Shown here: positions 3,324 through 4,293 of the stretch, piece by piece | Position numbering within the stretch: the first letter of the stretch is position 1 | Layout: every line of letters starts with the position of its first letter | Source: a virus | Taxonomy: Duplodnaviria > Heunggongvirae > Uroviricota > Caudoviricetes | Reading direction: 5' to 3' (one strand) | Length of the DNA stretch: 6,105 nt | IMG/VR virus record: IMGVR_UViG_2529292872_000016 | Notes under the pieces: generated by a model | Seen by the model: the letters and a program-made list of their open reading frames with translations, nothing else | Told to the model about the DNA's origin: nothing | The model's database searches: none | Position numbers and translations under genes: made by a program

Positions 3324-4142
3324 TCAATTATGTTTTAAAAATGGATAGGTAAAGAATAACAAGTGACACAGATTCAAACCAAAATGGAAAAGGGTGGCAA
3401 CCCACAAACGCCCACTCCACATCCATGACAATCCATACACAACACCAGATAACGTGGCAAATAATACAAGTAAAGCACCACCTGAATAGTGATAAAAACC
3501 AAACAACAAAGCCGCCACAATTAATGCAACCAATGGAGACGTTACTTCTGATAGCCGTGATTGAATATACCCTCTAAATAATGATTCCTCTGCCAGAGAC
3601 ACAAAAAACAAATTAGCCAATATAAACTCTGGCAACCACTCAGGAAAATGAATCTCTGGCTTTAATCCACCAAAAAAAACAGCCAAAAACAGGATAAGAG
3701 GAACAGAGAGCGACAGAGCCCCCCACTTCCACAAAGACACTTCTGATTTTACTTCTTTTTTAAACAAAGAAGATGTACACAGGACTAACAAAAATGGCAC
3801 CAGCGCTTTATCAAAATTAAAATACATTGTATAGGGAGTACTTTGAGGGCCAACAGTAACAGAATTTAGCACTACAGGATTGTGAAACCCTGGCCATAGA
3901 TGGAAAAATAATGCTATGGCTGATAAAACTATGCCAACTTCATATATAGATTTAGCCCAGGCGTTATATTTCCAGTTGAACTTCAAAATAATAAAAAAAA
4001 CGATTGTAGCAACAAAAAATAACACCGACCAATCAATAATATCATTAAGCACAGCCAGGACAACAGACACCGTCAACAATGAAAAAGCCACTACCTTATG
4101 CCAACTGAGAGTTGACAGTGACAGTACTAACACAATCCACAT
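3324..4142 (-). CDS. CPBP-family (CAAX protease / Abi, PF02517-type) polytopic intramembrane metalloprotease, 272 aa
   Basis: Track ORF 3324..4148. I place the start at ATG 4142-4140 because a perfect AAGGAG (plus 4148-4153) lies 5 nt upstream; the track start at 4148 is a GTG inside that SD. The protein is highly hydrophobic with multiple predicted TM helices and all three CPBP motifs in the canonical order: EExxxR (LAEESLFRGY), FxxxH (LFGFYHY) and HxxxN (HFGLNLCH). The gene is very AT-rich. Confidence 0.8.
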   Translation of the reverse strand: MWIVLVLSLSTLSWHKVVAFSLLTVSVVLAVLNDIIDWSVLFFVATIVFFIILKFNWKYNAWAKSIYEVGIVLSAIALFFHLWPGFHNPVVLNSVTVGPQSTPYTMYFNFDKALVPFLLVLCTSSLFKKEVKSEVSLWKWGALSLSVPLILFLAVFFGGLKPEIHFPEWLPEFILANLFFVSLAEESLFRGYIQSRLSEVTSPLVALIVAALLFGFYHYSGGALLVLFATLSGVVYGLSWMWSGRLWVATLFHFGLNLCHLLFFTYPFLKHN

Positions 4143-4173
4143 AAGCACTCCTTTTATTTAATGATGAAGATTG

Positions 4174-4202
4174 ATTATCAATATTTTCAATTCACCAGGC
4201 AA
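4174..4202 (-). promoter_or_regulatory. Candidate sigma70 promoter in the Q-to-CPBP intergenic region (either the late promoter pR' equivalent or the cargo gene's own promoter)
   Basis: Minus strand TTGCCT (-35; plus 4197-4202), 17-bp spacer, GATAAT (-10; plus 4174-4179), about 31 nt upstream of the CPBP ATG. It lies in the 145-bp AT-rich gap after the Q stop, the position where lambdoid phages carry pR'. Confidence 0.3.
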
Positions 4203-4293
4203 CATTTTATCTACCTTCCACAATACATGACCATCAAAAAATAAACATGTTAATTATAAACACAGAAAACATAACCCTCATCACTATATATCC

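Follow-up and report, generated by a model that had tools for sequence, protein, structure and literature searches.

A CPBP-type intramembrane protease gene lodged between antiterminator Q and its putative late promoter cassette in Escherichia coli prophages

Is a gene that directly follows antiterminator Q in a lambdoid prophage a Q-dependent late gene? The question is raised by a stretch of tailed-phage DNA of 6,105 nucleotides (nt), IMG/VR record IMGVR_UViG_2529292872_000016 (the whole stretch is hereafter called the window), in which a gene for a CPBP-family protein begins 151 nt past the stop codon of the Q gene. An initial annotation made from the sequence had placed it first after Q and the promoter region of Q, in the slot occupied in Shiga toxin (Stx) phages by the late promoter pR', the terminator tR', and tRNA genes ahead of the toxin genes. 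The gene does directly follow Q, but the late promoter/terminator cassette appears to lie downstream of it.

On balance, we lean towards the view that this is an accessory ("moron") gene situated between a phage-82/DLP12-type Q and Q's late cassette, expressed in the lysogen from its own promoter, and encoding an envelope-clipping protease. The gene would be lodged between Q and Q's own promoter/pause/terminator cassette, in a slot that is occupied by the porin gene nmpC in DLP12 and 434B and by ORF6N or GIY-YIG genes in other relatives. Transcription would most likely start at a sigma-70 promoter of its own in the Q-CPBP gap, with read-through from the early operon adding to expression upon induction; expression would hence occur in the lysogen, and the gene would not be the first late gene under Q antitermination. 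Its product would be an active intramembrane glutamic endopeptidase in the lysogen's inner membrane, most likely clipping a membrane-anchored or exported envelope protein and affecting host-cell signaling only indirectly. We infer the promoter assignments, the mode of expression, the catalytic activity, and the type of substrate from the evidence set out below. All genes in the window are on the minus strand, and the features on which the argument turns are as follows.

4294-4665, minus strand: antiterminator Q gene, phage-82/DLP12 type, PF06530 (Pfam E value 8.7e-52, RefSeq annotation, Q alignment)
4174-4202, minus strand: candidate sigma-70 promoter of the CPBP gene, TTGCCT-17 nt-GATAAT (consensus scan)
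4148-4153, minus strand: Shine-Dalgarno sequence AAGGAG of the CPBP gene, read from the sequence, in a region kept in diverged copies
3324-4142, minus strand: CPBP gene, 272 amino acids (aa) from the ATG at 4142
3199-3243, minus strand: putative late promoter pR' and Q-loading region, within a near-invariant island
3161-3182, minus strand: predicted intrinsic terminator (tR'-like), CCCGCCTCTGAGCGGG followed by TTTTTT (terminator scan; RNA fold, -16.2 kcal/mol)

The open reading frame (ORF) ends at 3324 (minus strand) and starts in the mechanically made ORF list at a GTG at 4148. The ATG at 4142 is the likely start codon because AAGGAG (4153-4148) precedes it with a 5-nt spacer; it is also the start in RefSeq and in published knockout primers (PMC2654852). 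The protein matches PF02517 (Rce1-like) with 70.6 bits against a cutoff of 22.4 (E value 1.4e-19; residues 171 to 260, profile positions 3 to 92 of 93). The EExxxR, FxxxH, and HxxxN/D motifs of CPBP proteins are all present, as EESLFR (185 to 190), FGFYH (214 to 218), and HFGLN (253 to 257), and an alignment of 30 family members (47 to 84% identity) places them at conserved catalytic positions: conservation is complete at E185, E186, R190, F214, H218, and H253 and at least 90% at N257. Hydropathy analysis gave about nine hydrophobic segments, and an AlphaFold2 model built on the same alignment has nine helices plus a beta-hairpin at residues 90 to 107 (predicted local distance difference test score, 94.4; predicted template modeling score, 0.91), i.e., a polytopic membrane protein with a CPBP-like fold. 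The initial annotation's complete, polytopic CPBP-type protein with all motifs is thus borne out; the feature is real and its classification correct.

A chance ORF is unlikely, given that 819 nt stay open in DNA of 37.7% guanine plus cytosine (GC), that the gene is spread over E. coli genomes, and that the ratio of nonsynonymous to synonymous substitution rates of the phage copies, compared with diverged copies, is 0.13 to 0.23. These ratios indicate that the phage copies are under purifying selection. Residues 81 to 120 are a conserved stretch specific to the subfamily (HLxPGFHN...GPxSxPFxMYFNFDKALxPF) that forms the beta-hairpin loop, a candidate substrate- or partner-binding element. In PHROGs, the protein is matched by a full-length family with function unknown, and, as the initial annotation stated, the sequence does not reveal its specific role. 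The protein is not a member of the NCBIfam myxosortase/CTERM-sorting (Mrt) families, the best score being 33.2 bits against a cutoff of 250 (MrtP) and all eight Mrt-family matches falling far under their cutoffs and within the catalytic core. A sequence-profile search of the PDB returned nothing at an E value of 1 or better, with Rce1 and SpdC surfacing in fold searches only, and BFVD gave only weak CAAX-like matches, in giant viruses and Bacillus phage G.

Where does the late promoter lie relative to this gene? The Q of the window is 84% identical to that of phage 434B; the Q of phage 21, the subject of the Q21 structure paper, presumably belongs to another Q family. Sequence inspection and a terminator scan found no hairpin-plus-T-run terminator or pause cassette in the 151-nt Q-CPBP gap. 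A candidate cassette is present at 3243-3161, starting about 80 nt and ending about 160 nt downstream of the CPBP gene. It consists of a -35-like TTTACG (3243-3238), a 16-nt spacer, a -10 TATGCT (3221-3216) with a predicted start near 3209, an extended -10-like TGGTTATTT (3207-3199) that is a candidate sigma-dependent pause element, and the terminator. Because this layout matches the anatomy of Q-dependent cassettes given by Yin et al. (bioRxiv 10.1101/651190), in which a promoter goes with a sigma-dependent pause element and a terminator, 3243-3161 may be read as such a cassette. Together with the PF06530 Q, the promoter, the -10-like pause element, and the intrinsic terminator make up a cassette of the phage-82/DLP12 type, its start and pause being predicted. 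The -35-like hexamer lies within a perfect 14-bp palindrome, TTTACGTACGTAAA (3243-3230, minus strand), which may serve as a binding site for Q or as some other regulatory site. None of the five aligned CPBP loci differs in this palindrome, nor does 434B; it is changed at two central bases but still palindromic (TTTACGATCGTAAA) in E. coli GN06667 (locus L002), and replaced in phage phiP27.

The same segment stands out by its conservation. When the downstream regions of six loci were aligned, with CPBP proteins 59 to 100% identical to that of the window, one near-invariant island emerged (GCATTTACGTACGTAAAAAATCAGGTATGCTGTTAAGAGTGGTTA, then a CCCGCC-loop-GGCGGG hairpin and a T run). The island is kept even where the CPBP protein is only 59 to 62% identical and the flanks are unalignable, and across loci the terminator stem is conserved while its loop varies. 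Among the 44 IMG/VR loci encoding the CPBP protein, the island motif is found 105 to 125 nt past the CPBP stop codon in 38, and a PF06530-type Q lies at most 400 nt upstream (about 146 to 276 nt) in 40, with one more 585 nt upstream of a disrupted copy. As to whether the gene always sits after Q, this proximity is the usual arrangement in these IMG/VR loci; the Salmonella locus and the chromosomal copies described below are placed otherwise. Three near-identical IMG/VR prophage loci (L145, L150, and L154) have partial or interrupted CPBP matches, which suggests occasional inactivation of the gene. A literature search for the island sequence found nothing.

The island is conserved in eight loci with four different cargo genes. 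In phage 434B, the island is more than 2 kb past Q, nmpC::IS5 lying between the two, and directly precedes S-R-Rz, about 120 nt upstream of the holin gene; we take this arrangement to be the DLP12 late region of E. coli K-12. In DLP12, the region that regulates the Q-controlled lysis operon has been located directly upstream of essD (PMC7918800). In phiP27, an Stx2e phage, Q is followed by a GIY-YIG-family gene and then by the island, past which come a TrmB-like gene, a methylase gene, tRNAs, and stx2e; in E. coli GN06667, an ORF6N gene occupies the Q-island slot with the island after it. The earlier expectation that this region carries accessory cargo in lambdoid phages is supported. The cargo genes found in the slot in these relatives are as follows.

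L002 2423-2983: ORF6N gene, E. coli GN06667
L021 750-1979: GIY-YIG-family gene, 410 aa, phiP27
L020 1-1431: nmpC::IS5, 434B

From the conservation of the island and the 434B/DLP12 precedent, we infer that pR'/tR' lies downstream of the CPBP gene. In the window, this gene is not downstream of a pR' and tR', as Q-dependent late-operon cargo would be, and its slot, upstream of the cassette, is not the pR'/tR'-plus-tRNA slot of Stx phages with which it had been equated. The stx-equivalent slot after tR' instead holds the frameshifted TrmB-like gene, the psrA-like AraC-family gene, three tRNAs, and the sialate-esterase gene. With pR'/tR' downstream, the CPBP gene would be cargo trapped between Q and the Q-loading site, which would explain its lasting linkage to PF06530-type Q and its travel with the Q allele down to 59% protein identity. 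Codivergence of Q and the CPBP protein was also considered as a sign of functional coupling and rejected: Q is 79 to 96% conserved across alternative cargos, and position within the Q/loading-site module explains the linkage better.

How, then, might the gene be transcribed? Promoter-like hexamers are found 30 to 70 nt upstream of the CPBP start: TTGCCT-17-GATAAT in the window, TTGTCA-17-GATAAT at the same place in L003 and the Escherichia albertii loci, and, in other lineages, TTGACA-19-TATAAT (L016) and TTGCAT-18-TATAAA (L014). The copies that are 59 to 62% identical have different yet strong promoter-like hexamers in the same gap. Such sites are common in DNA rich in adenine and thymine (AT), 13 being found in the consensus scan against 7.4 expected, and the hexamers alone are only suggestive of an own promoter. 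Considered together with the published transcripts in uninduced cultures (see below), a lysogen-expressed accessory gene is the most economical reading.

The alternative that survives best, which we consider improbable for the window but would not dismiss lightly, is that pR' lies within the Q-CPBP gap and that the gene is the first Q-dependent late gene, with a lytic role such as envelope remodeling, lysis timing, or late superinfection exclusion. The gap of the window does hold three promoter-like sites, and in E. albertii prophages, the lysis cassette follows the CPBP gene by no more than about 800 nt. In L107 (locus span 3905-6615; also L152), moreover, a lambda-type Q (PF03589), a promoter-like site, and a strong terminator (4831-4856) precede a 55% identical CPBP gene, and a holin gene follows about 400 nt further on. 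With the cassette between Q and the CPBP gene, the latter would be a late gene there, and the first-late-gene picture would be right for the L107 lineage, though not for the window. The gap of the window contains neither a terminator nor a pause cassette; the sole promoter/terminator island with deep conservation lies past the gene; that same island precedes the lysis genes in 434B, whose Q is 84% identical; and CPBP transcripts are present in uninduced cultures. In L107 and L152, CPBP cargo has been placed independently within the Q-to-lysis interval, but past the terminator, on its late side.

The gene itself is already annotated and published, although its characterization is thin. Positions 3324 to 4293 are 100% identical to many O157:H7 genomes, and CPBP DNA at least 80% identical occurs in 572 of 5,426 complete E. 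coli genomes, 547 of which have it at 99% or more, as a rule once per genome. Its RefSeq name is "CPBP family intramembrane glutamic endopeptidase"; in strain Sakai, it is ECs1085, a "phage CAAX amino terminal protease family protein" of prophage Sp4, between Q (ECs1084) and an AraC-family gene (ECs1087). Sp6, the Sakai prophage that corresponds to the effector end of O-island 50, was rejected as its location because its Q is of a different, larger type and it lacks a CPBP gene. No literature was found under the name ECs1085. DNA and protein searches of 50,697 records of isolated phages found no carrier, only two weak Listeria fragments.

The window contains exact matches to the reverse transcription-PCR (RT-PCR) primers and to both knockout homology arms of Jandu et al. 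2009 (PMC2654852). In that study, RT-PCR and microarray signals of the gene were obtained in broth and on HEp-2 cells, with a 2.7-fold increase on HEp-2 cells and no induction on T84 cells. The mutant lost the block that enterohemorrhagic E. coli imposes on STAT-1 phosphorylation induced by interferon gamma (IFN-gamma), and complementation was only partial (PMC2654852). A 2020 RNA sequencing study of O26 and O145 E. coli that produce Shiga toxin (STEC), which labels the gene a CAAX protease virulence factor, found its expression in adhered cells to be 3- to 13-fold below that of planktonic cells. In a 2012 follow-up from the laboratory of Jandu et al., the secreted STAT-1 inhibitor was still unidentified, and O-island 50 did not turn up in a term search of the paper. 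The possibility raised by the initial annotation that an identical protein had already been characterized is thus realized as to identity and, given the thin characterization, only in part as to function. What the analysis adds is a correction of the gene's regulatory position, the tracing of the family to a chromosomal ancestry, and a warning about the sole functional study.

The phage copy descends from a chromosomal Enterobacterales gene family. Full-length homologs (270 to 276 aa, about 45 to 54% identity) occur across the Enterobacterales, in Pseudomonas aeruginosa, and in a Helicobacter species, and relatives were confirmed at 190 sites when one genome per species was scanned. Of the 80 best loci from that scan, 39 (Providencia, Photorhabdus, Xenorhabdus, Serratia, and Yersinia) have the order modE-modF-CPBP, usually followed by gpmA or galE. 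The same order was found in Hafnia, and Dickeya, Enterobacter, and others have the gene at other places. No chromosomal Escherichia copy was found among the matches, the Escherichia and Shigella copies examined being phage borne, and at the sole Salmonella locus examined (L110/L111) the gene lies among transposase genes, not beside Q. The P. aeruginosa ortholog (L105 3140-9367) has gpmI on one side and, on the other, genes for an M23 peptidase, an S41 C-terminal processing peptidase, and a YibQ-like deacetylase; the Morganellaceae ortholog adjoins gpmA, so that adjacency to phosphoglycerate mutase and cell wall protease genes recurs.

Two further explanations concern what the protein does, and to each we attach little weight. 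The first is that it is a lysogenic-conversion protease, such that the envelope or exported protein it cleaves yields a secreted IFN-gamma/STAT-1 blocker or the surface it remodels blocks phage or colicin entry. The second, foreseen by the initial annotation, is anti-phage defense, superinfection exclusion, or bacteriocin/microcin immunity, as with Gram-positive "Abi" proteins. Some Gram-positive Abi/CPBP proteins confer bacteriocin immunity, several homologs are named "CAAX amino terminal protease self-immunity" in databases, and the slot elsewhere carries the nmpC porin gene, an ORF6N gene, or a GIY-YIG nuclease-family gene. However, no PADLOC-DB v2 family matches at an E value of 0.1 or better, neither the window nor 10 phage-type loci nor the examined chromosomal loci contain a bacteriocin or toxin gene, and no isolated phage in the 50,697-record collection is a carrier. 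The chromosomal orthologs, moreover, lie at one conserved housekeeping-type locus beside modF in 39 of the 80 species rather than in variable islands, unlike defense genes. These results count against a defense or immunity role.

Slimmer still are the prospects of the protein being a nonproteolytic membrane scaffold that regulates a cell wall hydrolase in the way that SpdC/LyrA of Staphylococcus aureus regulates SagB. SpdC is the best structural match, the conserved 81-120 loop with its beta-hairpin could be a partner-binding surface, and in P. aeruginosa the ortholog is near the M23 peptidase, S41 peptidase, and YibQ-like deacetylase genes. A pure scaffold, however, needs no catalytic residues, and these are kept in phage and chromosomal members down to 47% identity; neither is there a linked hydrolase gene in the Enterobacterales or phage loci. 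Finally, the proposal of Jandu et al. 2009 that a released virulence protease directly blocks IFN-gamma/STAT-1 signaling is scarcely credible despite the partial inhibition conferred by the cloned gene in HB101 (PMC2654852), as the model of an integral membrane protein of about nine helices and no soluble domain makes soluble release implausible, complementation was partial and T84 cells gave no induction, in the mutant the pKD4 kan marker took the place of the ORF, its excision not being described, at a site that directly precedes the pR'-like cassette and psrA, so that polar effects are possible, and the 2012 follow-up had not identified the secreted inhibitor and gave no match to O-island 50 in a term search.

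The preferred reading of a lysogen-expressed accessory protease upstream of the Q cassette has points against it as well. The promoters were called by consensus matching in AT-rich DNA, and the transcription start and the terminator are predicted. The regulatory context is not universal, as the L107 late-gene arrangement makes clear, and the published expression changes conflict in direction (2.7-fold up on HEp-2 cells, unchanged on T84 cells, 3- to 13-fold down in adhered STEC). Proteolytic activity and substrate are putative for every member of the subfamily. SpdC, the best structural match, appears to act as a noncatalytic partner of a glucosaminidase.

The remaining features of the window are as follows.

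5649-6086 and 5039-5656, minus strand: DUF968 gene, split by a frameshift
4655-5026, minus strand: RusA gene
about 2841-3037, minus strand: frameshifted TrmB-like small gene, first ORF past the terminator (RefSeq annotation of the matching locus)
1990-2703, minus strand: AraC-family (psrA-like) gene
1712-1961, minus strand: three tRNA genes
1445-1635, minus strand: STnc100 small RNA match (Rfam, 138 bits against a gathering score of 47)
up to and past the window edge, minus strand: start of a sialate-esterase gene

GC content is 33 to 40% across the CPBP gene and the 3' part of Q and about 50 to 55% in the flanks. The DUF968 ORFs (145 and 205 aa, overlapping) differ by two 1-nt indels from the intact 349-aa gene of O157 strain PV15-279, so that this gene is probably a pseudogene in the source strain of the window; TrmB-like homologs are intact in phiP27, L002, and L003. 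The tRNA at 1886-1961 (minus strand) was called tRNA-Met (CAT) by ARAGORN and is tRNA-Ile (ileZ, CAT anticodon) in the RefSeq and Sakai annotations, the three tRNAs being the usual ileZ-argN-argO set of STEC prophages. The STnc100 match, between the tRNA cluster and the sialate-esterase gene, occupies the position of stx in Stx phages. The ORF-poor stretch at 1-1700 was set aside as an oddity, being explained by the 5' part of the nanS-p-like sialate-esterase gene and the STnc100 match.

Compared with PV15-279, the window is 100% identical only across 3130-5200, which comprises the pR'-like island, CPBP, Q, and RusA. Outside that segment it is about 2% diverged, with differences clustering in the DUF968, TrmB-like, and psrA-like genes, and its overall divergence from Sakai is the same. 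Identity over 2700-4700 is never above 99.3% among the complete E. coli genomes listed. Judged by these alignments, the window is a mosaic.

These observations bear on how prophage cargo is interpreted. By this analysis, a phage-82/DLP12-type Q appears often to be separated from its late promoter by a cargo gene (CPBP, nmpC, ORF6N, or GIY-YIG), and this separation matters for predicting whether prophage cargo is Q dependent, as stx is, or lysogen expressed. With the published mutation lying immediately upstream of the cassette and the virulence regulator gene psrA, its phenotype needs retesting with clean alleles. The CPBP subfamily, being well conserved in the Enterobacterales, could be studied in genetically tractable hosts.

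How does the locus compare with known systems? The CPBP gene is identical to the published O157 gene, while the DUF968, TrmB-like, and psrA-like flanks are about 2% off Sakai and PV15-279. Its product is only 17% identical to Rce1 of Methanococcus maripaludis (PDB 4CAD), from which it differs in having extra N-terminal helices and the subfamily-specific loop and beta-hairpin at 81 to 120; no evidence for a prenylated CAAX substrate was found. Identity to SpdC/LyrA of S. aureus (PDB 6U0O, SagB-SpdC complex) is 14%, and the present family, by comparison, keeps all catalytic residues. The modF-adjacent genes of Providencia, Photorhabdus, Xenorhabdus, Serratia, Yersinia, and Hafnia are the nearest in kind, with about 270 to 276 aa, 45 to 54% identity, and the same motifs and central loop; unlike the phage copy, they reside in the chromosome, where their locus has the conserved order modE-modF-CPBP-gpmA or galE.

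In position, the analog is the nmpC/lc porin gene of DLP12 (qsr'), 434B, and PA-2, envelope-protein cargo between an 84% identical Q and the same island, although it encodes an unrelated outer membrane protein and, unlike the CPBP gene, is on the opposite strand. The lc gene of PA-2 is expressed in lysogens. The stx genes, like the CPBP gene, are cargo in the Q-to-lysis interval of lambdoid STEC prophages, but they lie downstream of pR'/tR' and are Q dependent, whereas the CPBP gene lies upstream of the pR'-like cassette. Both kinds of position are occupied in phiP27, where a GIY-YIG-family gene fills the pre-pR' slot equivalent to that of the CPBP gene and stx2e follows the tRNAs.

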